A stretch of 64,000 bases of DNA from Escherichia phage Av-05: sequence record KM190144; one strand, 5' to 3'. Below are positions 1-54,884 of this stretch, piece after piece. How positions within the stretch are numbered: position 1 is the stretch's first letter; every line of letters begins with the position of its first letter. A program made the translations under genes and the position numbers. The notes beneath the pieces are model-generated. The model had not been told where the DNA came from, did no database searches, and worked only from the letters and a program-made list of their open reading frames with translations.

Positions 1-138
1 AAAAGATAACACAACACGCTTCTTGTGCAAGGTTAAAGATGAAGAGAAGGGTTTTTAACATCCCACACAAAAACCTAACAGTTTTGGATCTTAATGACAA
101 CATTGTTATCTCCAGATACAGAGATAGCCACTGAAAAT

Positions 139-8902: not shown

Positions 8903-9211
8903 CTACCTAGCAATTAGATATTGTATCTTTCCGTCATCTTCCTGATACCCAACATCTACAACATAGTATTCCCCAACATCAGGAATCAACAACTTATCCC
9001 CAACCTCGTACTCTTTTGCGGTATGGTATACCATTGATTCTGTAAAATATTTGTACTTATCCATATCGTTAATGTTGCATGAGATTTCCATTTCTCCGTT
9101 GTTGTTGGGTATGAGAATATCCTCACCATTCTTTTTCCCAACCACATAACCACCTACCAATGTTTTAACTAAGCACAGTGTTTTATTGAGTTTGTCTTGG
9201 AACTTTGGCAA
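8903..9211 (-). CDS. Hypothetical protein
   Basis: ORF in track, 102 aa. Confidence 0.4.
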   Translation of the reverse strand: MPKFQDKLNKTLCLVKTLVGGYVVGKKNGEDILIPNNNGEMEISCNINDMDKYKYFTESMVYHTAKEYEVGDKLLIPDVGEYYVVDVGYQEDDGKIQYLIAR

Positions 9212-9728
9212 AAGAATCCTCCATTTTGTCCAGGAATGTTTCCAGGAGTTTTATTCTTTCTGGTGTGTTAAGATTAAGTGTTTTAATCCCTTTCATCTTA
9301 GCAAGATTGACAGCAGTAGCCGTGCCGCCTCTTGGATTGCCATTCTTATCTTCTTTTGCAAAGTAGAGCACAAAGGAAGATGGCTTTGGGTTGTTAATAT
9401 TCACTCCCAACACTTGATGCACATTCCTAGAATGCAACGCAAATGCTGATCTGTTTCTCAACAATGCTTGTGGGTTTGGATGCACCTTTTGCACCAACTC
9501 ATCTCGATATTCTATTTGGTCGATATATAGATGGTTAATATATTGTAAGGCATAATCCCAGTTATCGTACAAACCCACTTCTTTATCACCAAAACCTTTC
9601 CATGGTATGTAGATTTCTGCGAGTCTGTTACCATACAACATTTTGGTTTTATCGTCAAGGCCATCGAAATATCGCTGCATCCCTCTCTGGAACGCTGCAT
9701 CGGCTCCTTCTGCCTTACCGCTCCGCAA
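9183..9728 (-). CDS. Hypothetical protein
   Basis: TTG start; weak DprA/SLOG-like resemblance (GKAEGADAA, RNRSA) not relied on. Confidence 0.35.
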   Translation of the reverse strand: MRSGKAEGADAAFQRGMQRYFDGLDDKTKMLYGNRLAEIYIPWKGFGDKEVGLYDNWDYALQYINHLYIDQIEYRDELVQKVHPNPQALLRNRSAFALHSRNVHQVLGVNINNPKPSSFVLYFAKEDKNGNPRGGTATAVNLAKMKGIKTLNLNTPERIKLLETFLDKMEDSFAKVPRQTQ

Positions 9729-9762
9729 TGTAAACCCTATTTTTTTTTCAAGGAGTTAAGCA

Positions 9763-11013
9763 ATGACAGCAACAACAGGTGTTGGTGGTTTAATTTATGG
9801 TCGTGCATTGGTTGATCAGAGGACAGGAAAGAAAATAAATTTTGATGAACTGGGCGGCGGGAATATTCCAGAAGACATAACAGATCTTATTGCATCTAAA
9901 GCCCCAATAGAAAGCCCTTCATTTACAGGAAACCCCCAAGCACCAACACCGTTGGATGATGCTATTGGAAAGGAAATAGCTAATGTAGAATATGTGAGGG
10001 GTTTAATTGCAAAATTGGCTGACTCAGCGCCTGAAACATTAGATACTCTCAATGAATTAGCGAAGGCATTAGGTGATGACCCTAACTTTGCGACAACCAT
10101 AACTAACGCTCTTGCTGGTAAACAACCATTGAGTGAAATACTGACATCTTTGTCAGGATTGATTACTGCCGGAAATAAACTAGCTTATTTCAGTGACAAA
10201 AACGTAATGGCTTTGGCAAATCTCTCCGCTGTTGGTCGAGTTATTATAGGGCAAGACTCAAAAACTGGGGTTCTTGATTATCTGGGGATAAAAACCGCCG
10301 CTACAAAAGATGTACAAAACGATATCTATGATGCCACCGATGGGGTAGTATCTTTGCCTGGTGCATTTGGTTTTGGGGCGTTTATCCCTGCCGAGAAAGA
10401 AGTTGTTTTTCAAGAGAAGAATGGGCCAGAGGAATGGGTTTCTTGGTTGAGAAGTGCACAACCTGGTCGTTACCTTGTTCGCCAAGATTTACCTTCAGGT
10501 GGTATACGTATTATTGAAGGGATCACATTTAGAGGTATGGTTGAGGTATTGTCCCTATTTCCAGCGGAGAGTGCGGAACAGGCATCTAAAAATAACAAAT
10601 ATGCTTATTTTTATGGTATAAATGGGGAGTTATACTCTTATCGCTTACTGACTATTTTTGCCAGTGGTGACTGGGTGAATATAAAAGGACAATTCTCTTC
10701 TTTACAGTCTACGGTAGACAATTCATGGGGGAGTCCTGATGTTGGAGGAATAATGTTAGGAGTGTATCTTGGCGCTTCGGACACTGATTCAAACAGAAAA
10801 CTTGTTCGTGGTCAGACTATCCCAGGATCCCGCATAGGGTGTATAACTCTTTACAGCAATGTTTCCGCAACAGGTGCATATCAAAGTACACCAGTTTCTG
10901 TTACACACAGTAATGAAACACAGAGAGGCACGTTTGTAGCCTTATCTGGCTCACCAAGCAACAGCGGTGGTACAGCCACAGGTTACATAGGTCTTTTTAT
11001 GAGGATTGCATAA
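9763..11013 (+). CDS. Tail fibre protein
   Basis: SPSFTGNPQAPTP tail-fibre anchor motif; AAGGAG RBS; N-terminus MTATTGVGGLIYGRALVD. Confidence 0.6.
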   Translation: MTATTGVGGLIYGRALVDQRTGKKINFDELGGGNIPEDITDLIASKAPIESPSFTGNPQAPTPLDDAIGKEIANVEYVRGLIAKLADSAPETLDTLNELAKALGDDPNFATTITNALAGKQPLSEILTSLSGLITAGNKLAYFSDKNVMALANLSAVGRVIIGQDSKTGVLDYLGIKTAATKDVQNDIYDATDGVVSLPGAFGFGAFIPAEKEVVFQEKNGPEEWVSWLRSAQPGRYLVRQDLPSGGIRIIEGITFRGMVEVLSLFPAESAEQASKNNKYAYFYGINGELYSYRLLTIFASGDWVNIKGQFSSLQSTVDNSWGSPDVGGIMLGVYLGASDTDSNRKLVRGQTIPGSRIGCITLYSNVSATGAYQSTPVSVTHSNETQRGTFVALSGSPSNSGGTATGYIGLFMRIA

Positions 11014-11582
11014 TGCTGGATATTAAAGATATTAAGTCCCCGCAGTATCTTCTTAATGGTGACGTTGATTGCCTCGTCCTTTTTGAGGGTTTCTCTGATT
11101 ATCTCCCATACACCGCTTCCAGTAACGACTGTAGCGAAACAGGAAAGGCAGTTTGGGATTCCTTACAATCTGGTAATTTTGGGGAGATTGCCCCGTATGT
11201 AGTAAACCCTCAATTTATCGAGGCATTAAAGCAACAGATGTTATCAGAAATAAAAGAGTGGAGAAAACTGGAAGAAAGCTCTACGGCTATTGTTTCTTAT
11301 AATGGTGCAAGGTATGATGTTGATAATGCAACCCTTGGTCGTATTTATCCAGTATTATTAGCACAAAAAGCATCCCCAGCCAGACAAGCTGTGGTTTGGA
11401 GAGATGTTGATAACAAACCTGTAGAGATGAGTAGCTCTGAATTTGAAAATCTTGTTGTAGCTATGTCTTCCGAGTTGGCAACTAAGAATGATTCAATATA
11501 CATCAAGCAACGAGAAATGAAAGATCAAGTGCTTTCAGCCTCTACGATTGAGGAATTACAAAGGATAAAAATTGGGTGGTAG
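11013..11582 (+). CDS. Putative tail fibre assembly/accessory protein
   Basis: Start overlaps fibre stop (ATGA); position between fibre genes. Confidence 0.3.
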   Translation: MLDIKDIKSPQYLLNGDVDCLVLFEGFSDYLPYTASSNDCSETGKAVWDSLQSGNFGEIAPYVVNPQFIEALKQQMLSEIKEWRKLEESSTAIVSYNGARYDVDNATLGRIYPVLLAQKASPARQAVVWRDVDNKPVEMSSSEFENLVVAMSSELATKNDSIYIKQREMKDQVLSASTIEELQRIKIGW

Positions 11583-13222
11583 CTATGGATTATAAGGATA
11601 AAGTTGTCAATGCTGAAGTCATACTTCCAGATGGGCATAGTATTGGAGGATCAGGACTCCCAAGCCAATCTTTTAAATTATACACAGAAGACACCGCGAC
11701 CATAAAACTTTCAGGTAATGGTGAAAAAGCAACACCACTTAAAGGTGTTGTTGTGGTGGCAGAAGATGAAAATAATGCTCTCCAAGCTGGAGATAATGGG
11801 TTAGCTGTTAAGGTGAGTCCTGCTGCAAATAACCTGCTGGAGTTGAAGCAAGGAGCATTATATGTAACAGCACCAGAGATAAATATTCCAATTTCTCCTA
11901 AAGAAGGAAACGCTTTAACAAATATAACCTCTGAAGGGGAAGAGGGGTTGTATGTTGCGCCTACCAAAGTGCAAGGATGGCTTTATGATTCTGCACCTGG
12001 TGTTGCAGCTTTGCCTGGCGCTTTCGGCTACGGAATGACAGATCCTGGAGCAATTTCACTTATTGCTAACAGTCTTGGCGATGTTGCACGTTCTGCCCAT
12101 AACCTACACCCAGGAAGGTATTATACTTTCACCACACGATCTGAGGAAATGACCGGAATAACAGAAATTATCTGGTTGGATAATGGCTGGGGCAACAAAA
12201 CCAGTCAGACAGCAACAAAGCTGGTTCTGTTTTTTGGAAAAGACGGTCGTATGAAGTATACAATCCGTGGCGACAATCTAAGCGATCCGGCAGTGTGGTA
12301 TGATTTGTTAACTACTAAGCAAACAGATATCTATGATCGTACAGAAGGTGTTGTCGCCATACCTGGCATGTTTGGATTCGGTAGTGATTTCGTCGGTATT
12401 GATACTGTCTATTTTAACAACAAAGCGGAGTTCCTTACTTGGGTGCATAATACTCGTTCTGGTCGTTATCTGGTGAGCCAGATATATGGTAGCGAGCCTA
12501 TCATTAACAGCAATGTTACGTTTAGCGGTATTCTTGAGGTTATCCCAACTGGTAGTGTTGGCGTTGGTTACGAGGAGAATTTACCTAACGTATGGAAAAA
12601 CCTTATTTTTTACGGCGCTAATTACGGCGATATCTGGTACACACGTTTTACCACACAACCGAATAACTTGTCTGGTTGGAGGTGCTTAGATAAGACAACG
12701 GATATAATCAATTTGCAGAACTCGCTTAATAGAAAAGCTCCATTGTACAACCCTAATTTCTCTGGTACACCAACAGTACCTACACCAAGCGATTCAGCAT
12801 CAGGAACCCAGATTGCCAACGTAGATTTTGTTAAAAAACAGGTATCTAATAACACTTACACACTGTCTGCTGGCACGGTTACTGTTTTAGATAGTGGATC
12901 ACAACCTACTATTGAGATAACTGGTCAATCACCATCACAGGTTTTAAATTTGGGAATACCAAAAGCACCTGATGGACAAACAATAAAATCTGTCAATGCT
13001 GTTGTTAAAGAAATAGACAGCGCACAACAGGTTACACTAACTTTTACAATGACAGATGATTCAAGTCAACAGGCGAGCTTTAATATCCCGTTTTCTCCTC
13101 AGCCGACTATGAAGCTGTCAGCAACATCTGGGAATTTCTCTTTCAATTATGGCGATACACCTTCAGCGGAAAAACGCAGCGGGAAGATCTGGGTCTTCTA
13201 TATATTTGAAAACAACAGTTGA
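11576..13222 (+). CDS. Tail fibre protein, N-terminal part (frame-shifted relative to 13149-13553)
   Basis: PNFSGTPTVPTPSDSASGTQIANVDFV fibre motif; stop at 13220 inside overlap with next frame. Confidence 0.55.
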   Translation: MVAMDYKDKVVNAEVILPDGHSIGGSGLPSQSFKLYTEDTATIKLSGNGEKATPLKGVVVVAEDENNALQAGDNGLAVKVSPAANNLLELKQGALYVTAPEINIPISPKEGNALTNITSEGEEGLYVAPTKVQGWLYDSAPGVAALPGAFGYGMTDPGAISLIANSLGDVARSAHNLHPGRYYTFTTRSEEMTGITEIIWLDNGWGNKTSQTATKLVLFFGKDGRMKYTIRGDNLSDPAVWYDLLTTKQTDIYDRTEGVVAIPGMFGFGSDFVGIDTVYFNNKAEFLTWVHNTRSGRYLVSQIYGSEPIINSNVTFSGILEVIPTGSVGVGYEENLPNVWKNLIFYGANYGDIWYTRFTTQPNNLSGWRCLDKTTDIINLQNSLNRKAPLYNPNFSGTPTVPTPSDSASGTQIANVDFVKKQVSNNTYTLSAGTVTVLDSGSQPTIEITGQSPSQVLNLGIPKAPDGQTIKSVNAVVKEIDSAQQVTLTFTMTDDSSQQASFNIPFSPQPTMKLSATSGNFSFNYGDTPSAEKRSGKIWVFYIFENNS

Positions 13223-13553
13223 TCTGAACAGAGCACCTGCTGGCAGTACAGATGTTATGGTGGATGTTCGTTTGACAGAGATACCTTGTACGGAAGACGG
13301 TACGTATCTTGATTATGATATCTATGCAGAATACCCAAGTGTTGTCGGGTCAGGGCAACCCACAGTGGCTGTATGGCTTATTCTGCCAACAGTTCCCACG
13401 CATACCATTGATCCCAAGACGAAGATAATAACTAAACTTCTTCGCGGAGACGGTGGCTTATCAGGACTTAATGGAGTCATTCCTATTGCAGGTGCAGACG
13501 AACAAGTCCACGAGTTTAAATATTTCTTGCAATATTCTTATCTAAACAACTAA
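13149..13553 (+). CDS. Tail fibre C-terminal part (+1 frame continuation, no RBS)
   Basis: No Shine-Dalgarno before ATG 13149; frame is +1 to upstream ORF; A5 run at 13170-13174 in overlap. Confidence 0.4.
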   Translation: MAIHLQRKNAAGRSGSSIYLKTTVDLNRAPAGSTDVMVDVRLTEIPCTEDGTYLDYDIYAEYPSVVGSGQPTVAVWLILPTVPTHTIDPKTKIITKLLRGDGGLSGLNGVIPIAGADEQVHEFKYFLQYSYLNN

Positions 13554-13563
13554 GGGGATAATT

Positions 13564-13821
13564 ATGGCAACAACAGGTGTGGCTGGTAAAGTATATGCAT
13601 CAAGCCTTGTTGATATTAAGACAGGTAAATCTGTTAAAGTTGGAGATATAGTTGCTGGAGGATCCGGTGGCTATGTTCTTCCAGAAGCGACAACATCTAC
13701 ATTAGGAGGTGTAAAGAAAGCAGAGTCCCAATCTGATTCTGTAGCCTCTGAGGTAGCTCAATTAGTAACAGATTTTAATGCTCTGCTTTCCAAGTTAAAA
13801 GCCGCTGGCATCATGGCGTAA
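13564..13821 (+). CDS. Small protein with tail-fibre-like N-terminal module
   Basis: MATTGVAGKVYASSLVDIKTGK parallels N-terminus of fibre 9763-11013; AAGGGGA RBS; followed by terminator. Confidence 0.5.
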   Translation: MATTGVAGKVYASSLVDIKTGKSVKVGDIVAGGSGGYVLPEATTSTLGGVKKAESQSDSVASEVAQLVTDFNALLSKLKAAGIMA

Positions 13822-13825
13822 TATA

Positions 13826-13850
13826 AAGACCCTTCGGGGTCTTTTATTTT
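13826..13850. terminator. Bidirectional Rho-independent terminator between convergent genes
   Basis: GACCC-TTCG-GGGTC hairpin (13828-13841) flanked by A-run and TTTTATTTT. Confidence 0.6.
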
Positions 13851-15873: not shown

Positions 15874-16403
15874 TGGCTGATTTTATCAGTACAGATGAGA
15901 TCTTCGATGCCTTGACGAAAACAATAGGTTCTTTTTGTAAAGAGGTTACTGGTCGAAAAGTCGTGCTGGCAGGGGAAGATGAAATACCTAAAGTTGATGG
16001 TGAGTTTATTTTGGTGGATCTTACTGCGGTAGATCAGCTTGACTGGCAATCTGATGATGGATTTACTGATGATGGTCGAGCGATGACAGTCCATAACTAC
16101 GAGGTGGTATATACATTGACTGCTTATCGCGGTAAAGCACCAAATGCCCTAAGTCGTATTTTACAGGCTATGAACTTACCTTTTATATACGATAAGTATT
16201 TCCCAACTAATTCCCCTTTTGCGTATTCCTCTTCTTCAACAATATCTCGGTTAAGAGTTCCTTTGAATGTTCAAAAATATGAAACTCGTGCTGTCGTGTT
16301 GCTAACATTCAATGTTTGCTTTGCAGAAACAGACACTGGAGTTTTCGAAGATTTGGAAACCCTCAATGCGCAACTTTCATATCATTTTCCGAAAGAGGAT
16401 TAA
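15873..16403 (+). CDS. Hypothetical structural protein (possible tail completion/terminator)
   Basis: ORF in track, ATGA overlap with previous gene. Confidence 0.4.
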   Translation: MADFISTDEIFDALTKTIGSFCKEVTGRKVVLAGEDEIPKVDGEFILVDLTAVDQLDWQSDDGFTDDGRAMTVHNYEVVYTLTAYRGKAPNALSRILQAMNLPFIYDKYFPTNSPFAYSSSSTISRLRVPLNVQKYETRAVVLLTFNVCFAETDTGVFEDLETLNAQLSYHFPKED

Positions 16404-17943: not shown

Positions 17944-18417
17944 ATGAATACAGCTATTCTAACGCCGTATGCATATGACCCTAAAAAAGTAAAACTGTAT
18001 CTGATGACTCAAAGAGTAACAGGATTCGCAGCGGACACGAAAATTGTGGTGTCCCGTAATGAAGACAATATCATTCCCCACATGGGGGTTGATGGTGAGC
18101 TATCTGCTGCACTGTCCCGTAACCAATCTGGTGTTATGACGGTTTCTCTTCAGAATACAGCATCATGGAATGGTAATTTAGCAAACTGGCAAAAACAAGC
18201 ATCCGTAACTGGTCTTATTTTCTTCCCTGTTCTTCTGGAAGGTTCTCAAGGTATGGGTTTGAGTACAATTGGATGGATTCAGAAGCAGCCTGACCTTACT
18301 TACGGAACGGAAGTTGGTCAAATGGACTGGGAAATTGGTATTCTGGATGCTTGGTTGAGTCCTGATACTCTGTCCTCTGTTGGCTTCGGCCTCGCTGGAC
18401 TTTCCGGTATCGTTTAA
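17944..18417 (+). CDS. Tail tube protein (putative)
   Basis: 157 aa, follows sheath gene by 3 nt. Confidence 0.5.
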   Translation: MNTAILTPYAYDPKKVKLYLMTQRVTGFAADTKIVVSRNEDNIIPHMGVDGELSAALSRNQSGVMTVSLQNTASWNGNLANWQKQASVTGLIFFPVLLEGSQGMGLSTIGWIQKQPDLTYGTEVGQMDWEIGILDAWLSPDTLSSVGFGLAGLSGIV

Positions 18418-18426
18418 TAATTTCGT

Positions 18427-18960
18427 GTGCCACATGGATGTGGCCTTTATACACGTAAGGATAATTCAACTTTTAAAGACGCAGGAGCGTGCATGAAAAT
18501 TAGACAAACAACTGAAATTGACCTCGCAGGTCACAACTTTGTTATCACACATTGGTCTCCAACAAAAGCATTTAAAAATATTCCTAAGATAGGACGTTAT
18601 ATTGCTGTTCCAATGGCATCCATCTCTGGGGCACTTATGTCTGGTGGGCAGAATCTTTCTGATGCTATCCCAACAGCAGTATTATACCTGTTTGACCAGA
18701 TGGAGCAAGATAATATTGAAGAACTTTTTGCCTTAATTCTGGACGATGTATCTGTTGATGGTATGGCAGGTAAGGTAGACATTGATGATATTTTCCAAGG
18801 GAAGATGATGGACCTTATCAAACTCGTGGCAAAAGTGCTGGAGGTTAATTACGGCTGTTTTTTCACGAAAGACGGTTTCGCAAGCCTTCAGGATCTTCTG
18901 GGACGCCTGGGTCAGACCCATCAACTGAACACGATGGATCAGGCAGAGGAAGCGGAGTAA
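18427..18960 (+). CDS. Tail assembly chaperone (putative)
   Basis: 177 aa acidic protein between tube and tape measure. Confidence 0.4.
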   Translation: MPHGCGLYTRKDNSTFKDAGACMKIRQTTEIDLAGHNFVITHWSPTKAFKNIPKIGRYIAVPMASISGALMSGGQNLSDAIPTAVLYLFDQMEQDNIEELFALILDDVSVDGMAGKVDIDDIFQGKMMDLIKLVAKVLEVNYGCFFTKDGFASLQDLLGRLGQTHQLNTMDQAEEAE

Positions 18961-18995
18961 CACCGTCCAATATTTCGAAAGTTGTCCTGAGAGCT

Positions 18996-19238
18996 ATGAA
19001 TTATGCAAGAAAAAATAGCTCATTGACTTGGTTCGATTATTTGTGGTGTCGTGCTCTGAAGAGTTTTAAAGGTGAGTCTTATTCCTCACTTGAGTCTGCT
19101 GACATGGCCTACCTGCTTAAACTGAACGAATATCTTGATATTGAAGAGTTTATCCAAGACGTACAGGAGAGAGAGGAACAAAGTGCAGCCAATGCTGCCG
19201 CCGCTGCAAATAGGTCGCGCCGAGGTAGAAGAGGTTAA
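18996..19238 (+). CDS. Small tail assembly protein (putative)
   Basis: 80 aa, immediately upstream of tape measure. Confidence 0.35.
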   Translation: MNYARKNSSLTWFDYLWCRALKSFKGESYSSLESADMAYLLKLNEYLDIEEFIQDVQEREEQSAANAAAAANRSRRGRRG

Positions 19239-19243
19239 TCTCA

Positions 19244-19278
19244 AGCCAGGTTCCTTCTCGGAACCTGGCTTTTTTATT
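19244..19278 (+). terminator. Rho-independent terminator
   Basis: AGCCAGGTTCC-TTCTC-GGAACCTGGCT 11-bp perfect stem then TTTTTTATT. Confidence 0.65.
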
Positions 19279-19289
19279 GAGGAAAATCT

Positions 19290-21671
19290 ATGGCGAATAT
19301 CATAGTAACTAAAACCGTAAATACTGTCGAGTGGTCTGTAGATCGCACCAGTTACGGTCGTGCAATGAAAGCTATAAAATCCCTGAAGAAGGAATGGGAA
19401 AAGACTAACAGAGCTTTCACTTCTAATAAAAGTAATCCGGCAGCAATTTATAAACGTTCTGCACAAGAGGCTCGTCTTGTAGCTAAAAGATTACACCAAA
19501 CTGAACGTGCAGAGCAAGCAAAATCTACGGCACATGCTATTGCAATGGCAAAAAAGGAAGCTCGTGCTCGTGAACAAATAGCTAAAGTTGAGAGCGCGAG
19601 AAGAAAGCAAGCAGTAGCCAGACTAACAAACAGAAGAACACCCGAAGAACAAAAAGAATATAATGCATTAAAATCAAAGTTGAAGCAGATGGAAAAAACA
19701 GGTTCTGGGTATGGGACAAATCCAGAAATATCTGCTGCCCGTCAAGCAAGATTGCAGCAAGAACTTGCAGCAAGGAAGTCTTCAGGATCTGCCTCTGGTA
19801 TTGTTGGGGATCCTAATAGTCGCCACGACCCAAGTCTTGTGGCTGCTCAGAACTCTGCTATGGAACGCTATCATAAATCTATCCCGAAAGAAAAAACAGC
19901 GGATGAGATTAAGGCAGAAAAAGATGCTAATAAGAAGAAAGAAAGAGAAGCGTTAAGAGCAGAAAGAATAAAGGCTGCAAAACAATCAACGATTGCTAAT
20001 GCTGCTGTAAGACTTCGTGCTAAGTATGGTGATGATTTCAGATCTAAAATTAAAGGTTATGATGATCTGGAAAAGAGATTTATGCAAAGCCAGACTATGA
20101 GAGCTTCTAATTTCCGTGCTGAATTGGCAGCAATGGAAACAGGACTCCGCAAAGCTAAGGCAAATACACTATCTCTTGATCAAGGATTGAAGAACCTTCG
20201 TAGCACATTAATTAGTGTTTCTGCTGCATACGGGGCTTTTAATGCTGCCGCAAGTGTTGTGAAAACAGGGCAATTCTTTCAAGGCATGGAAGCTACCATG
20301 TTAATGGTTTCTGATGACTCAGAAGAAGCTGCGAAAAGAATGCAGTTTGTTCGGGAGCAATCTTACAGATTGGGTTTGGATTTAAAAACCGCCGCTCAAG
20401 GTTATACCCAAATGGCTATCTCTGCTAACGGTGTTTTGAGCAAGGCGCAAAATGACGAACTGTTCAAAGGCCTCTCAGAATATGCTACTGCACTTCAGGT
20501 TGATCCTGTAAAATACCAGCGTGGTATCACTGCTATCCAACAAATGATGGGTAAAGGTCAGATCATGGCTGAGGAGTTAAAATCACAACTTTCCGAAGGT
20601 ATTCCAGGTTCTCTTAATGTATTCCTTAAAGCCACACAAGAAGCATTCAATGATTCATCTATAGACATTGCAAAATTAATGGATATGATGAAGAATGGAG
20701 AGCTAAAGGCTTCAAAAATTCTTCCTTTGGTTGCTAAGTATTATGCCGAGGCCGCAAGAAAAGGTGGTGCACTTACCAAGGCACAACAAAGCAACCGTGT
20801 TGCTATGCAGCGTTTACAACAAACGTGGATGAACTTTCAGAATCAAATATTTGAAAGTGGTTTTGGTGAAGCCTTGACAGACACGTTTAACAATCTGGCA
20901 AAAGCCTTGGATAGTAATGGGGAATTGGCACGTAACATAGGACAGATAACAAAAGGTTTTGTTGAAGGCTTTATGTGGGTATTCTACCAAATATATAATA
21001 TCTTTATAGATATTGACGGGATTTTGCAGAGATATATCCCAATTTTCAGAAGAAATGGTGATGAATTAGGGAAGGCTTGGGAATGGACAGGAATGGCTAT
21101 AGGAGCTTTGTTCTTCGCCACTTCGCTAGGTAGAGTTTTCACTATCTTATCTAAAATCGCAGGACTTTCGAAGTCTCTCAAATTTTTGAAAACACTTGGT
21201 GGTGGGGTAGCTACGCCAACCGCTCCAAGCAAAGGCCCGTGGGGGGGAGGTGGATCTGGAAAAGGATCATTTCCGTTTTTCTTAAATCCCTATGCTGCTG
21301 CAACAGTTTGGGGTTTGGATTATGCGGTCTCCACTGATAGTGAGAAAGATGATAAAAAGCGGCAGCTTGGTAATGCCTATTCCTATGGTAGTGGTGACTT
21401 CATGGCTGTGGTTGGAGGGATGTTAACAAACTGGTGGTCATCCCTGTGGGCTGGGCATATGCAGGATAAAGCTAACTATCTCCAATCCCATAATCTAATG
21501 CCTGGTGGTTCGACGGGTCAAACTGTAGCCCCTATGGTCATTCCTACCGAGCCTGTCAGTGGTGAAATAACCATTAAAATAGATGCTGGTGAATTACGCA
21601 ATATGATTGATCAGCAAATAGAGACAGCCAATATGGATAACATTAATCTTATTCTCGCTGTCCCTCAATAA
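19290..21671 (+). CDS. Tail tape measure protein
   Basis: 793 aa, long A/K/E/R-rich coiled-coil N-half, hydrophobic and Gly-rich segments (GGGVATPTAPSKGPWGGGGSGKG). Confidence 0.7.
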   Translation: MANIIVTKTVNTVEWSVDRTSYGRAMKAIKSLKKEWEKTNRAFTSNKSNPAAIYKRSAQEARLVAKRLHQTERAEQAKSTAHAIAMAKKEARAREQIAKVESARRKQAVARLTNRRTPEEQKEYNALKSKLKQMEKTGSGYGTNPEISAARQARLQQELAARKSSGSASGIVGDPNSRHDPSLVAAQNSAMERYHKSIPKEKTADEIKAEKDANKKKEREALRAERIKAAKQSTIANAAVRLRAKYGDDFRSKIKGYDDLEKRFMQSQTMRASNFRAELAAMETGLRKAKANTLSLDQGLKNLRSTLISVSAAYGAFNAAASVVKTGQFFQGMEATMLMVSDDSEEAAKRMQFVREQSYRLGLDLKTAAQGYTQMAISANGVLSKAQNDELFKGLSEYATALQVDPVKYQRGITAIQQMMGKGQIMAEELKSQLSEGIPGSLNVFLKATQEAFNDSSIDIAKLMDMMKNGELKASKILPLVAKYYAEAARKGGALTKAQQSNRVAMQRLQQTWMNFQNQIFESGFGEALTDTFNNLAKALDSNGELARNIGQITKGFVEGFMWVFYQIYNIFIDIDGILQRYIPIFRRNGDELGKAWEWTGMAIGALFFATSLGRVFTILSKIAGLSKSLKFLKTLGGGVATPTAPSKGPWGGGGSGKGSFPFFLNPYAAATVWGLDYAVSTDSEKDDKKRQLGNAYSYGSGDFMAVVGGMLTNWWSSLWAGHMQDKANYLQSHNLMPGGSTGQTVAPMVIPTEPVSGEITIKIDAGELRNMIDQQIETANMDNINLILAVPQ

Positions 21672-25318: not shown

Positions 25319-25633
25319 GTGGCTGCTCAATTTGGATTAAATGACTACGGTTTTTCAATTCCGTCCCTTGATGACTTGATAACAGATACCAAGCAATCCC
25401 TTATTAGAGCTTTTGGTGAAAACTTTAACACCCAAACTAACTCCGTTGTTGATAAGATCACTACTATTTTCAACGAAAGGGAATATCAATTAATTCTTTT
25501 GGCTGCATCTATTTATGCAGCACAAACGTTAGCAGGGGCAGAAGGTATATATCTTGACGAGATTCTTGGTCGTCGTGGGATATTCCGTAGAGGAAAAACC
25601 AAAGGGTCCGGTACTGGTTCAAATGGTAATTAA
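25319..25633 (+). CDS. Baseplate J-like protein, N-terminal part (frame-shifted)
   Basis: N-terminus of baseplate J-type protein; stop at 25631 inside overlap with next frame. Confidence 0.45.
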   Translation: MAAQFGLNDYGFSIPSLDDLITDTKQSLIRAFGENFNTQTNSVVDKITTIFNEREYQLILLAASIYAAQTLAGAEGIYLDEILGRRGIFRRGKTKGSGTGSNGN

Positions 25634-26813
25634 TAACACAGTGCCGTATAATATGATTTATGATGCCGCAACATACAGTATTGACGGTGGGAATTTTGTG
25701 TTAACAGAAGATACTGCCGTTGCTGGTAATATCATAGCGCAGCAAATAACCAATCAGGATTGGGTTCTTGGTAACTACACCATCCAGATAGTTAACCAGA
25801 ATGATGGGACAACAAAGACACTGAACCTATCTCTGAAAAACAAAACCCCAAACAGCACCGAATTAAACTCTTTTATGATGGCTATGAAAGAGTTTATAGT
25901 CGATAATACAACTTATCTGAACGAAGATAAGATCTTTATCGAATCTTCTTCAGGAAGTATGTTTATAGGTTATGATCAAAATAAGAAAATGATTGGTCTT
26001 AATGCTCCTGTTGACTTTAGAACATCACCCCTGCTTGGTCAAAGAACAATAACCATGGATGTTATTGCTGTTGAAGCAGGAGAAATATCTAGAGAAGCAG
26101 AGACAGTTACCAACATAAGCCCGACACCAAGTGGTTTTGTTAGCTTGACGAACAGGGAAGCATTTAGTGATGGTACAGATGTTGAGACGGATACAGAATA
26201 TAAGCTGAGGGCTTCGAGCACCACATCAACAGGTGCTGCCGCAACACGGCCAGCTATTGTTTCTGCTGTTTTAAATGTGCCTGGTGTAAGTAAGGTTAAA
26301 ATTTTCTCCAACAATACTGGTGTGACAAACGAGTACGGTGTTCCAGCGTATAAGTTTGAGACAGTAGTCTATGGTGGGGCCACAGAAGATATCAGTAAGG
26401 CACTTTATAATACCATAGCACTCTCTAATGCTACTTATGGTGATGTATTCTATGATGTGACTACAGAAGATGACCAAGTAGAAAGAATTTATCATAGCAA
26501 GGCAAAAGTAAGGCAACTTGAAATTCGTGTCAGATATAAAGGTAAATTACTATCCCTTACAGAACAGAACACGATCAGGGATTCCCTTAAAGCTGTTGTT
26601 GATCCTCTTAACATTGCAGATACGTTGTACAATATCCAACTTGTTTCTGCTGTGGGGTCATCCATCTCATCAGGTAGATTTACTCAACTTTTAGTAGATG
26701 TCAAAAACAAAGGTGAACCAGACAGTACGTATACTAATGATGATATTGTTGCTACTATGACAGAAGTTTTCGCTGTAGAGTTAAATGACATAACTTTCCA
26801 GCAAGTTCTTTAA
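25554..26813 (+). CDS. Baseplate J-like protein, C-terminal part (+1 frame continuation)
   Basis: 419 aa in +1 frame; A5 run at 25594-25598 in the overlap. Confidence 0.45.
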   Translation: MTRFLVVVGYSVEEKPKGPVLVQMVINNTVPYNMIYDAATYSIDGGNFVLTEDTAVAGNIIAQQITNQDWVLGNYTIQIVNQNDGTTKTLNLSLKNKTPNSTELNSFMMAMKEFIVDNTTYLNEDKIFIESSSGSMFIGYDQNKKMIGLNAPVDFRTSPLLGQRTITMDVIAVEAGEISREAETVTNISPTPSGFVSLTNREAFSDGTDVETDTEYKLRASSTTSTGAAATRPAIVSAVLNVPGVSKVKIFSNNTGVTNEYGVPAYKFETVVYGGATEDISKALYNTIALSNATYGDVFYDVTTEDDQVERIYHSKAKVRQLEIRVRYKGKLLSLTEQNTIRDSLKAVVDPLNIADTLYNIQLVSAVGSSISSGRFTQLLVDVKNKGEPDSTYTNDDIVATMTEVFAVELNDITFQQVL

Positions 26814-27513: not shown

Positions 27514-29577
27514 ATGACAGAGGCTATTTTCACAGCCAGAAGAGAAGATGACTCTGTAGCTGTTAGCTTTGACTATGAAACAATATCAAACACAGCTATT
27601 GCTGGAAGAGATTATACACCCAAAGTAGGTACGGCAACAATTCCTAAAGGGGAAAAGTCTGTACAGATACCTGTGGAGATAAAACAACATCCTAAAAACT
27701 CATTACCAAGAGAATTTACCTTGAAAATGAGTAATCCGTCTTTTGGTGCAAGGCTAGACAGGCTGGCTTCCAGATGTGTTATTAGCACCAAGGAGGATAT
27801 GTCTGAGTTGGGGTGGGGAACAAAAGAAGAGAAAATGTTTCTACCTAAATATTGGACAATTGATTCTCAGCCCACAGAAAGTTGCTCTATAATATCTAAT
27901 GGTAATATACTTACAGCTTATATGACTAATAGAACTGTAAGCGGTTTAGCAGGGGTTATTTGGAGCACAAAAGATAAGTATGATCATAAAGGGATCTCTT
28001 TTCAAGATCACACAGATCTTCGAAACGCTAAACTGTGGTTCGATATAGAGTTGGGCGACGGAATGCCTGATTTTAATAATGAGAAATTGACCCCGACATT
28101 AACTCTTAAACTTTTAGATGGGGCGACCCATTATATCCCTCTGTACGCTTATGCTGAAAATATCGGTGAGGATTATAAAAGAGCCACAATCAAACTTGAT
28201 TTTTCAAATTTAAAATCCGGCCCTGATGTGAACGTGCCAGTGGATACCTCTCAAGTGGATCAGTTTTTCTTTTCTATGATATCTGAGAAGTATGCAGAAG
28301 GAGAAGATGTTGTCCCTAAAGAAAATCAGAACCTTATGTTGAAAATAACTCTTAAAGAGCCTGATACAGGCTATACAATGATGAGAGTTAATAATTTGAC
28401 AATTCCTGCACATGATGTGCGTATGTGTACATCCTATGATGATATGTATAACCTGACACCTGAACGAGTGGTGGACAACTGCTTGAAACTTGGGTACAGG
28501 GATATGATAAACCACTATAATGGTATGTCGCATTATTACGAGTTCTCTTGGGAAAGCTCCGCATGGAAACTGAACAAAGATGTCCCTGTCAATAATGCAA
28601 CCCTACAATGGATGAATAACTATTTCGCACTGACACGAGCAAATGGTTATAAGGTTATCAATTCTATTAGTTTTGAGTTGATGAGTACTGTATGTCCGGC
28701 AGAATGGGTGCAGCATGATTGGAATGATGCATTAGCTGAAACAGGATACACACCACCAAGTTGGGTATTATCTCCTAATATTAATGAGGGTATGCAATAT
28801 ATCCAAAGTGTGATAAATAAAATAGCAGCCACATGCGAACAAGCTAACCAGGTTGTTATCATTCAGATAGGGGAGCCTTGGTGGTGGTATAATACTGCTA
28901 CAAATTTACCTTGTGTGTATGATTATACTACAAAAGCGCGTTTTAATGAAGAGACTGGATTGTATGCTCAAGACATGGGGACAATTTATGACTTTAAGAC
29001 CGGAACACCCTATGATGAGTATGTAGATTTTCTAAGACAGTGCTTAGGGGAGCGAGTGGTAAAATTCGGTGCTGATCTTAAAAAATCTTATCCTAATGCA
29101 AAAATAACACTTTTACCGTTTTTACCATCCATTATTGGTAATGGTATTATGGAAAAGATAAATTTCCCTAGTGGTAGTTATACACCTGAGAATTTTGATC
29201 TCTATTGCTCCGAGTGCTATGACTGGTTACTCCAAGGGAAAATGGAAAAATCATTCCAAGCCATCACCATTCCGCGAGATGTCTTAAAATTTAAAGAAGA
29301 TAAGATACATTATCTGGCAGGATTTGTTCCAGACGAAGGGCTAGCACCATTATACGGATTTGACCCTAATTCTAATTATAGAGAATATCTTTGGAAAATG
29401 ATTATAGGGAACATTGTCCTTAATGAGTTTAAGTTTCCAGGTATTTATCAATACATATGGGCGTATCCACAAGTAATGCATGATTCTATAACAGTGCACA
29501 ACTCTCAATCCGCAGTCTTTCATATGGGGCATACAGCATTGAAAGGGTATTTAAAAGATACCCCACCAGAAGTTTAA
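27514..29577 (+). CDS. Calx-beta domain tail protein (putative receptor-binding or glycan-interacting)
   Basis: N-terminal AVSFDYETISNTAIAGRDYTPKVGTATIPKGEKSVQIPVEI fits Calx-beta pattern; 687 aa W/Y-rich. Confidence 0.4.
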   Translation: MTEAIFTARREDDSVAVSFDYETISNTAIAGRDYTPKVGTATIPKGEKSVQIPVEIKQHPKNSLPREFTLKMSNPSFGARLDRLASRCVISTKEDMSELGWGTKEEKMFLPKYWTIDSQPTESCSIISNGNILTAYMTNRTVSGLAGVIWSTKDKYDHKGISFQDHTDLRNAKLWFDIELGDGMPDFNNEKLTPTLTLKLLDGATHYIPLYAYAENIGEDYKRATIKLDFSNLKSGPDVNVPVDTSQVDQFFFSMISEKYAEGEDVVPKENQNLMLKITLKEPDTGYTMMRVNNLTIPAHDVRMCTSYDDMYNLTPERVVDNCLKLGYRDMINHYNGMSHYYEFSWESSAWKLNKDVPVNNATLQWMNNYFALTRANGYKVINSISFELMSTVCPAEWVQHDWNDALAETGYTPPSWVLSPNINEGMQYIQSVINKIAATCEQANQVVIIQIGEPWWWYNTATNLPCVYDYTTKARFNEETGLYAQDMGTIYDFKTGTPYDEYVDFLRQCLGERVVKFGADLKKSYPNAKITLLPFLPSIIGNGIMEKINFPSGSYTPENFDLYCSECYDWLLQGKMEKSFQAITIPRDVLKFKEDKIHYLAGFVPDEGLAPLYGFDPNSNYREYLWKMIIGNIVLNEFKFPGIYQYIWAYPQVMHDSITVHNSQSAVFHMGHTALKGYLKDTPPEV

Positions 29578-41654: not shown

Positions 41655-41874
41655 GGCTAATTACCTCTCCCTTCAACAACTTGACATTAATTTTGAGTTC
41701 TGCAATTTGACACATAGCGTCAATATTTGTGTCTTCTAACTTCTTAATTTCATCAAGAAGTGCCAGCACAAGCTGGGGCGTGACCATAGCACGGTAGTCA
41801 GTTATTTCTTGATGAGTACCACCATCTTTTGCTATCTCTGCTAACTTACGTAATTCTTGGTAGTCAATTTTCAT
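41647..41874 (-). CDS. Hypothetical protein
   Basis: Track ORF 41647-41994 trimmed to internal Met MKIDYQELRK to avoid overlap. Confidence 0.35.
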   Translation of the reverse strand: MKIDYQELRKLAEIAKDGGTHQEITDYRAMVTPQLVLALLDEIKKLEDTNIDAMCQIAELKINVKLLKGEVISHD

Positions 41875-42250
41875 AACTTGATAAGTCCTGTGTTGTTTTA
41901 TTGACTGCATTATATGCCTCTTTGAGCACCCAGTCAACAGCATCTTTCCATGCTCCGGTTTCGACGGGTGGATTCTCACGCTTAACCTGCTCATAGAAGC
42001 GCACTGCTTTAATCAATCCTTCTAAGGTTACAGGTGTGGTGTATAACGCCTGAATTTCGTAGTTTGGTCTGTCGTTACAATCTTCTTTTGTTGGGACATA
42101 TTTCCAGTCACCAGTCCACAGATTTCCCTGTTTTACATAACGATAGCGCCAAGCAACTGGTTGTTGGGTTGCTGTTTTAAGGCTTGGTGACGAAGGTGGG
42201 AGCGAAACATTAGCCATTTCCGAGATGACAGGTTGATAACCATTGCTCAT
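41864..42250 (-). CDS. Hypothetical protein
   Basis: ORF in track, 128 aa. Confidence 0.4.
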   Translation of the reverse strand: MSNGYQPVISEMANVSLPPSSPSLKTATQQPVAWRYRYVKQGNLWTGDWKYVPTKEDCNDRPNYEIQALYTTPVTLEGLIKAVRFYEQVKRENPPVETGAWKDAVDWVLKEAYNAVNKTTQDLSSYEN

Positions 42251-53944: not shown

Positions 53945-54410
53945 ACTCCCCCAACTCTTGTTTTAACTCAATATTTTCTTTTAACAGGGCATTCACAAAA
54001 GCTAATATGTGAACAAGAGAACTCTGACAACCATTAGCATATAGTTCAGCTTCTACACGCTTTTTCAATTTCGCACCATAACCGTCTAAGTTGTCGAGAT
54101 GCTCTTTAATTTTATCATAAGCATCTCGTTTTCCTCTTAGCTCATTAATAATGTACAGAACATTATCTGGGCTTGCGGTGGCAATGTAACTGGCATCGTA
54201 GTCATTTTGCCAGTGAGATAAATTCCCAGTTCCCTCATGTCTCTTTGCCGGACCCATTTTAGGATCTGTGATGAAAACAGTTTTTACCTCCTTATCATCC
54301 TGAAAGGATACCATCGAATGTCCATGGCTATCTATCCACCAGTGCCCTCTGGTGGCTTTCTTTGCCAGTTTCTCAATATCTCCGATTAAGATATCAGCTT
54401 TTGTCTGCAT
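53937..54410 (-). CDS. Hypothetical protein
   Basis: ORF in track, 157 aa. Confidence 0.4.
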   Translation of the reverse strand: MQTKADILIGDIEKLAKKATRGHWWIDSHGHSMVSFQDDKEVKTVFITDPKMGPAKRHEGTGNLSHWQNDYDASYIATASPDNVLYIINELRGKRDAYDKIKEHLDNLDGYGAKLKKRVEAELYANGCQSSLVHILAFVNALLKENIELKQELGEYE

Positions 54411-54663
54411 TGATATCCTCCTTCTTCAAGACTAAACTTGCTCTTGAGATCTCAGAAGAAACATACTCTATGTGACTAATCACATATGTCGTTACTTCGC
54501 TTCCATCGCCAAAAATATTATCAAGATCTACGATAACAAGATCACCATTCTCCGGTTTTTCTACATCATCGGATAAGATAATCACAGCTTCTGCAACCTC
54601 CCCAGATTGGTTGAGACGCAGTGTAATATCATGACCATTACCCCTATACTCAGTAAAATCCAA
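54394..54663 (-). CDS. Hypothetical protein
   Basis: ORF in track, 89 aa. Confidence 0.4.
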   Translation of the reverse strand: MDFTEYRGNGHDITLRLNQSGEVAEAVIILSDDVEKPENGDLVIVDLDNIFGDGSEVTTYVISHIEYVSSEISRASLVLKKEDINADKS

Positions 54664-54701
54664 AACCTTTTTCTGCTTTTTGGTGTGGTGGGAAAAACCA
54701 C

Positions 54702-54884
54702 TTAAAGAGCTTCTTCAACATGCATTCGCTCCTTAATTTCATTTAGGATGTCTTCGTATCGCTGCCACGACTCTTCGGCAGACAACTTTGCTTCGAGAAA
54801 GTTGTCTCGTGCAACATCTCGTAATTTCAACAATTTTTCAGTTGAAACTTGACTCAAATCTGTAAAGTCTTCGACTTTAAACAT
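54702..54884 (-). CDS. Small hypothetical protein
   Basis: Track ORF 54702-55100 trimmed to Met MFKVEDF with AAGGA RBS; start overlaps stop of upstream gene. Confidence 0.35.
   Translation of the reverse strand: MFKVEDFTDLSQVSTEKLLKLRDVARDNFLEAKLSAEESWQRYEDILNEIKERMHVEEAL

Follow-up and report, generated by a model that had tools for sequence, protein, structure and literature searches.

The window is the whole stretch of 64,000 nt that was analysed from Escherichia phage Av-05 (record KM190144). It comes from an rV5-like myovirus, and its DNA is 90-96% identical to that of phages 18-1-2, 19-1-2, 24-2-1, and vB_EcoM_TH18 (hereafter TH18). These four are marmot E. coli phages of the Vequintavirinae (Avunavirus). 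The locus under study is a fibre operon of four genes, one of which is present as two overlapping ORFs (Table 1). The DUF4376 gene sits between the operon's two fibre genes, and its counterpart in phage 19-1-2 is annotated 'tail fiber assembly protein'. The second fibre gene is the split one, and it is followed by a short last ORF and a terminator-like hairpin.

Table 1. Coordinates of the fibre operon, of the break within it, and of the other single-G breaks in the window.
Feature	Position	Strand	Remarks
First fibre gene of the operon	9763..11013	+	416 aa; phrog_2636 tail fiber, E = 2e-85
DUF4376 gene, resembling tail-fibre assembly	11013..11582	+	189 aa; PF14301, E = 8e-12; phrog_1141
Upstream fibre ORF	11576..13222	+	GTG start, 548 aa; TGA stop at 13220-13222
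Upstream fibre frame from ATG 11585	11585..13222	+	545 aa; GTG 11576 is an alternative start
C-terminal beta-sandwich tip domain (predicted)	13106..13550	+	repaired residues 508-655; break about 20 residues in
Downstream ORF	13149..13553	+	134 aa; +1 frame relative to the upstream ORF
Extra-G site	13168..13169	+	GG, against a single G in every intact relative (DNA alignments)
A5 run	13170..13174	+	same length in intact relatives
Last ORF of the operon	13564..13821	+	85 aa; C-terminus matches Pfam Phage_head_fibr
Terminator-like hairpin, then T-run	13825..13844	+	3' end of the fibre operon
Break in a small ORF	49..51	+	GGG, against GG in TH18; homologue of TH18 gene 98258..98539
Break in the Baseplate_J wedge gene	25616..25617	+	GG, against a single G in TH18
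Break in a small ORF	54666..54667	-	CC on the + strand (GG coding), against a single base in TH18; homologue of TH18 gene 16024..16350

The upstream ORF, read from its ATG, begins MDYKDK. This start is the one annotated in phages 18-1-2 and TH18, and GGGTGG lies 7-12 nt upstream of the ATG. The last 18 codons before the TGA are out of frame (EKRSGKIWVFYIFENNS*), and the unrepaired product of 545 aa would end in ...PSAEKRSGKIWVFYIFENNS, with a tail peptide reading ...PSAEKRSGK.... The ORFs share 74 nt, in which GGAAAAAC with its A5 is found. The first seven codons of the downstream ORF (MAIHLQR) are fibre codons read out of frame, and from 13170 on it encodes the remainder of the fibre C-terminal domain. 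Neither its ATG at 13149 nor the following one in frame, at 13257, is preceded by a Shine-Dalgarno-like sequence. A sequence-only reading had described these ORF coordinates, the overlap, the A5, and the missing ribosome-binding site at 13149 in the same terms. It had also proposed that the +1 ORF continues the fibre. Homology to the C-termini of relatives bears this out, since from 13170 the downstream ORF shares 96% protein identity with the C-terminus of a 593-aa single gene in 18-1-2 and TH18, and 97% with the metagenomic protein P0001.

By homology, the split gene would encode a tail fibre. In tblastn, residues 2-126 match the 'tail fiber protein' of PVP-SE1, SSE121, and 4MG at 50-54% identity, and residues 244-421 match PHROG tail-fibre families, a widespread collar motif included (phrog_2636, E = 9e-35). 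A Pfam search gave no family for either half of the split fibre. The operon adjoins the capsid gene in relatives, and the match of its last ORF is to a head-fibre family, so that attachment of the fibre to the head or neck instead of the tail is conceivable. In E. coli genome and plasmid collections, only mosaic patches of about 250 nt are matched, and these lie in prophage side-tail-fibre genes.

The two ORFs are separated by a single extra base. The window reads TTCAGCGGAAAAACGC at the break, while 18-1-2/TH18 and the ENA scaffold L008, which carries P0001, read TTCAGC-GAAAAACGC. When aligned, the relatives have TTCAGC-G-AAAAACGC and the window has TTCAGC-GG-AAAAACGC. The 18-1-2/TH18 group and scaffold L008 are the intact comparators at the DNA level and are independent of each other; L008 has the same C-terminal domain after a different N-terminus, and also a single G. 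The sequence-only reading expected that removal of one A from the A5 would fuse the two ORFs. Removal of one base does restore a single fibre, but the A5 has equal length in the window and in the intact relatives, and the lesion is therefore the extra G. The A5 run is rejected as its site. The comparison with homologous fibre genes, which had been recommended as a check, finds intact relatives with a single ORF and one G before the A5.

Deletion of the extra G gives a fibre of 655 aa from ATG 11585, or 658 aa from GTG 11576, and the length of about 680 aa given earlier is too high. The repaired junction reads …NYGDTPSA/KNAAGRSGSSIYLKTTV… (the slash marks the break), and its counterpart in relatives reads …PSAKNAAGRSGSS…. 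The in-frame junction peptide is DTPSAKNAAGR, and recoding would give this peptide or DTPSAEKNAAGR. Past the break, codon comparison with 18-1-2 gives 16 synonymous and 4 non-synonymous differences, and comparison with the ENA scaffold gives 12 synonymous and 2 non-synonymous ones. There are no stop codons in the 134 codons of the +1 frame past the break. Since this frame is free of decay, the break is either extremely recent or absent from the real genome. The exact junction pattern has only two chance matches in viral_contigs, both in unrelated DNA, and no match in metagenome_contigs. The corresponding baseplate junction pattern (see below) has no match in viral_contigs.

The break falls within a C-terminal tip domain. 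The repaired C-terminal 232 residues, searched exhaustively and without a profile, match 282 cluster representatives, about 40 of which align as one stretch over query residues ~70-229. In those ~40 representatives the domain is always the protein C-terminus. The strongest conservation in the domain is in the motif GNFSFxYxDxPSAxNAAGxxG. This motif includes the junction PSA/KNAAG and is retained in a 34%-identical stand-alone homologue from Serratia phage PCH45 and in 42 diverse homologues. The residues D101, A108, G110, G113, Y117, and K119 are near-invariant in the alignments. AlphaFold2 with the homologue alignment predicts one compact beta-sandwich at query residues 85-232 with a pLDDT of 95-98. 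The predicted fold spans both sides of the break, which lies at 105/106, between the first two strands. Foldseek with the predicted domain returns nothing significant, and a sequence search of the PDB with the domain profile gives no match. From its position and predicted fold, we infer that the domain may be the distal glycan-binding tip of the fibre. It combines a confident predicted fold with the lack of a Pfam or PDB sequence match and recurs in ~40 diverse representatives, and may thus interest those who catalogue receptor-binding modules.

The same type of lesion is found elsewhere in the window. The whole window was aligned to TH18 with all indels listed, and the TH18 ORFs were compared with the window (tblastn) for changes of frame. 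Relative to TH18, two-frame splits affect exactly four genes, and each of the four breaks consists of one extra G on the coding strand with a shift to +1. The sequence contexts of the three non-fibre insertions are unrelated. The remaining odd-length indels relative to TH18 are intergenic or compensated, and the reverse comparison of window ORFs with TH18 finds no single-base break in TH18. TH18 as the carrier of the errors is rejected, as its ORFs are intact and other relatives agree with it.

One of the four broken genes encodes the Baseplate_J/gp6-like wedge subunit. Its pieces, 25319..25633 (104 aa) and 25554..26813 (419 aa, +1 frame), match consecutive parts of phrog_6 (Baseplate_J/gp6-like wedge subunit). 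The gene is a single ORF of 497 aa in TH18, and in 807 phage records it is covered to ≥80% by an alignment without breaks. The wedge subunit is required for the building of a contractile tail, and a viable myovirus with a broken one is not expected.

The window also contains a sharp non-syntenic join at 9739/9740, where sequence from the TH18 107,833 region passes into sequence from the TH18 58,383 region. The join removes about 29 codons from a DprA-like gene and abuts a T-run and the ribosome-binding site of the fibre gene at 9763. The joined loci are 46-50 kb apart in complete relatives, and the intervening DNA holds the capsid, portal, and terminase genes. The window skips about 47 kb at this point, essential genes included. 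The join is a further sign of poor assembly and has the look of a contig misjoin or concatenation.

The split fibre is most readily explained as a single-base indel error in the record, with a probability of roughly 80%; its technical origin is read from sequence comparison and would follow from the same lesion in three other genes, one of them an essential baseplate gene. Four lesions of one kind speak for a systematic process at work on the record, and not for selection on the phage. The real phage would have one intact fibre gene of about 655 aa, with an N-terminal anchor common to rV5-like and PVP-SE1-like fibres, a body, the collar motif, and a lectin-like tip. The spurious G at 13168/13169 would have been added in base-calling, in consensus building, or in assembly. 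No close relative has the indel, and the ORF that it interrupts is otherwise conserved. This type of lesion recurs in the record, in an essential gene among others, and has no reciprocal cases. No pseudogene decay is seen past the break. A sequencing indel was one of three options put forward by the sequence-only reading, together with a real frameshift allele and programmed slippage, and it is the one that the evidence favours, given that the lesion recurs in three unrelated genes. A change of G to GG concerns a very short homopolymer and not the long run in which platform errors are most typical, which counts against an artefact. The downstream ORF as a recombination remnant like that of Logan contig L009 (described below) is rejected, because the window retains the whole gene apart from one base.

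On this reading, the split is not a novel biological feature. The locus is best annotated as one fibre of 655 aa, or else given a frameshift or probable-sequencing-error flag; annotation as two proteins or as a recoding site is not advised. Caution is needed with the record as a whole, as it carries four or more single-G frameshifts and leaves out about 47 kb at its non-syntenic join.

The extra G may instead be real, as a very recent mutation in the phage or in a sub-population. The fibre would then be 545 aa long without its lectin-like tip, and the 134-codon ORF would be an untranslated remnant that is still undecayed. This is unlikely, although the locus lends it some plausibility. P0001 on ENA scaffold L008 is a 316-aa recombinant which joins the N-terminus of fibre 1 to the same tip. 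In Logan contig L009 (P0003), a different DUF4376 gene is followed by no more than the last ~96 codons of the fibre gene. The locus shows natural plasticity. Because relatives exist with a 3' remnant or a shortened recombinant, the fibre in question is probably dispensable, and a real frameshift in it could survive. Since most of the fibre is deleted in these natural variants, loss of the tip may be tolerated. A second fibre is encoded in the operon (9763..11013), and Vequintavirinae have several fibre sets (PMC8594841).

Against a real allele, the essential Baseplate_J gene and two more genes are broken likewise within the same 64 kb, and it is implausible that a viable phage has four real G-insertion frameshifts at once. 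No decay at all is seen in the downstream frame, and the break would remove a domain that is kept at the C-terminus of all homologues. If the frameshift is real nonetheless, it is an ordinary loss-of-tip allele at an already plastic locus. A variant of this reading has a small chance of being correct: the GG is real, the natural allele loses the tip and alters host range, and some full-length fibre might still be made through slippage (-2/+1) of tRNA-Lys on GAA_AAA_C at a low level. If such slippage takes place, virions would carry two fibre forms.

Programmed recoding, by which one gene would give both a truncated and a full-length fibre, is very unlikely. It would need a ribosomal shift of +1 at GCG_G, a shift of -2 on GAA_AAA_C, or a slip of RNA polymerase on the A5. 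The tRNA-Lys on AAA (13172-13174) could re-pair perfectly on AAA (13170-13172), two bases back, and the short ORF overlap and the lack of a ribosome-binding site for the downstream ORF are also as expected of such a system. However, the two-ORF arrangement occurs in no homologue, as the TH18 group, P0001, PCH45, and about 40 representatives all have the sequence in one frame. The 0-frame codons are GCG GAA AAA CGC, with no stop or rare codon at the A site. There is no canonical slippery heptamer, and the sole conceivable route is non-canonical -2 re-pairing on the A5. No GGAGG-like (Shine-Dalgarno-like) stimulator lies upstream of the shift site. The 90 nt downstream have a minimum free energy of -18.5 kcal/mol, compared with a mean of -19.8 for shuffled sequences (z = 0.42), and are thus no better than shuffled. 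The other three G insertions sit in unrelated contexts. Tracts such as G2 and A5 are too short for efficient transcriptional slippage. The programmed slippage offered by the sequence-only reading accordingly finds no support in conservation, in shift-prone codons, in a stimulator, or in a stable structure.

It is scarcely credible that the two ORFs are separate genes, with the second (13149..13553) translated alone and supplying the tip to the truncated fibre in trans. A stand-alone homologue of the tip domain, 178 aa long, does exist in Serratia phage PCH45 (QFP93177). The second ORF, however, has no Shine-Dalgarno-like sequence at either in-frame ATG, lacks the first ~20 residues of the domain with a whole beta-strand (E85-95), and starts with 7 out-of-frame residues, and the relatives at 90-97% identity have single genes. 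A phase-variable locus that works by slipped-strand mispairing is rejected: the only tracts are G2 and A5, both too short for phase variation, and the A5 is invariant among relatives.

When compared with known systems, the split gene is closest to the 593-aa gene of 18-1-2, 19-1-2, 24-2-1, and TH18 (UDW09821, UOX40086), which is annotated 'hypothetical protein'. Both genes lie after the fibre and DUF4376 genes and before an 85-aa ORF and the neck genes. The flanks have ~90% DNA identity, the C-terminal 125 codons have 96% protein identity, and the A5 is the same. In contrast, the 593-aa gene has no interruption and one G ahead of the A5, and its central ~180 residues are another module, so that DNA coverage is 76% and overall protein identity 71.5%. 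The 'tail fiber protein' of PVP-SE1-like and 4MG-like phages (PVP-SE1 gp69; SSE121, GAP31, 4MG) has 50-54% identity over the N-terminal ~125 residues, which are probably a virion-attachment module. These loci have the same neighbourhood upstream of neck and tail genes, but the body and tip of their fibres are unrelated, and query coverage is 19-28%.

The tip has 5-9% sequence identity with H-type lectins (Helix pomatia agglutinin 2CCV, discoidin I 2W94, and SLL-2 3WMP) and R-type pyocin fibre tips (6CU2, 6CL6, 6CXB). On the basis of the predicted model, the likeness would be one of fold and not a demonstrated membership of either group.

Programmed frameshifts, such as the -1 shift of the tail chaperone G/GT and the +1 shift of prfB, likewise involve overlapping ORFs of structural operons in which the second has no ribosome-binding site. 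The split in the window differs from these, as it is unconserved, has no slippery heptamer, stop or hungry codon, or stimulator, and is in the +1 direction. The window has its own tail-chaperone pair elsewhere, at about 18493..18960 and 18996..19238. Indel artefacts that give rise to false frameshifts and pseudogenes in draft phage genomes share with the split a single duplicated base, several genes hit in one record (an essential one among them), intact close relatives, and a preserved downstream frame. The window differs from them in that its runs are of 1-2 bases (G to GG, GG to GGG) beside A/T runs and are not long homopolymers.

The fibre locus of the window is modular, as shown by positions 9763-9840 and 13564-13640 together with a metagenomic scaffold (L008) and a Logan contig (L009). 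The N-terminal motif M(T)ATTGVxGxxYxxxLVDxxTGK is common to fibre 1 (the upstream fibre gene), an 85-aa ORF, and P0001, a 316-aa metagenomic protein in which this N-terminus is fused straight onto the tip domain, the predicted C-terminal beta-sandwich of the split fibre 2. In L009, fibre 2 is reduced to its final ~96 codons, which lie behind a different DUF4376 gene. Both fibre genes of the window contain the collar motif (…P.F.G.P..PTP……IANV.FV…), which could be the recombination point of the locus. The fibre body has a patch of ~250 nt (about 12000-12250) with 80-87% DNA identity to side-tail-fibre genes found in lambdoid prophages of E. coli, and likewise to Rac-SA53. The patch indicates that a lytic myovirus and prophages have exchanged segments in mosaic fashion.

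PHROG head-fibre families match the same C-terminal residues of the 85-aa ORF as the Pfam family does. Because of these head-fibre matches, and because the fibre operon adjoins the capsid gene in relatives, the sequence raises the question of whether the putative 'tail fibres' of the window attach to the head or neck.

Features of the window and their coordinates
Feature	Position	Strand	Detail
Small gene, function unknown	1-131		one extra coding-strand G; GGG at 49-51
DprA-like gene	9183..9728	minus	first ~29 codons missing at the 9739/9740 join
85-aa ORF	13564-13821		C-terminal ~55 residues match Pfam Phage_head_fibr (phi29 gp8.5-like), E = 8e-16
Baseplate_J / gp6-like wedge gene	25319-26813		extra G within GG at 25616-25617
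128-aa ORF, single	41864-42250	minus	
Primase/helicase, 669 aa	50517-52523	minus	compared with TH18 18231-21158
Small gene, function unknown	54394-54742	minus	one extra coding-strand G; CC at 54666-54667

The window has an abrupt non-syntenic junction at 9739-9740 (context 9183-9763), where the truncated DprA-like gene immediately adjoins the T9 run and the ribosome-binding site preceding the fibre gene at 9763. In the related Escherichia phage TH18 and in phages PVP-SE1 and 4MG, the two loci stand 46-50 kb apart, and the capsid, portal, and terminase genes fill the interval. Most probably the sequence was misassembled here or contigs were concatenated; a true deletion, the alternative, would be lethal.

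Three further genes are broken by one extra G. In the Baseplate_J / gp6-like wedge gene, the surplus base leaves ORFs of 104 aa and 419 aa, the second of them in the +1 frame. TH18 has one 497-aa ORF, and the gene is contiguous in 807 phage records. The TH18 homologues of the small genes at the start and toward the end of the window (98258..98539 and 16024..16350, respectively) are unbroken.

The window and TH18 also differ in two other places. The TH18 primase/helicase has a ~308-aa in-frame insert within the DnaB_C domain, which the window's protein lacks. The position of the insert suggests an intein; Pfam found no Hint or endonuclease domain in it at E < 0.001. Sequence homologous to the 128-aa ORF is put into two frames in TH18 by 20 nt that are extra relative to the window, in a region surrounding the 'ea22'-like genes 28021..28218 and 28276..28584.
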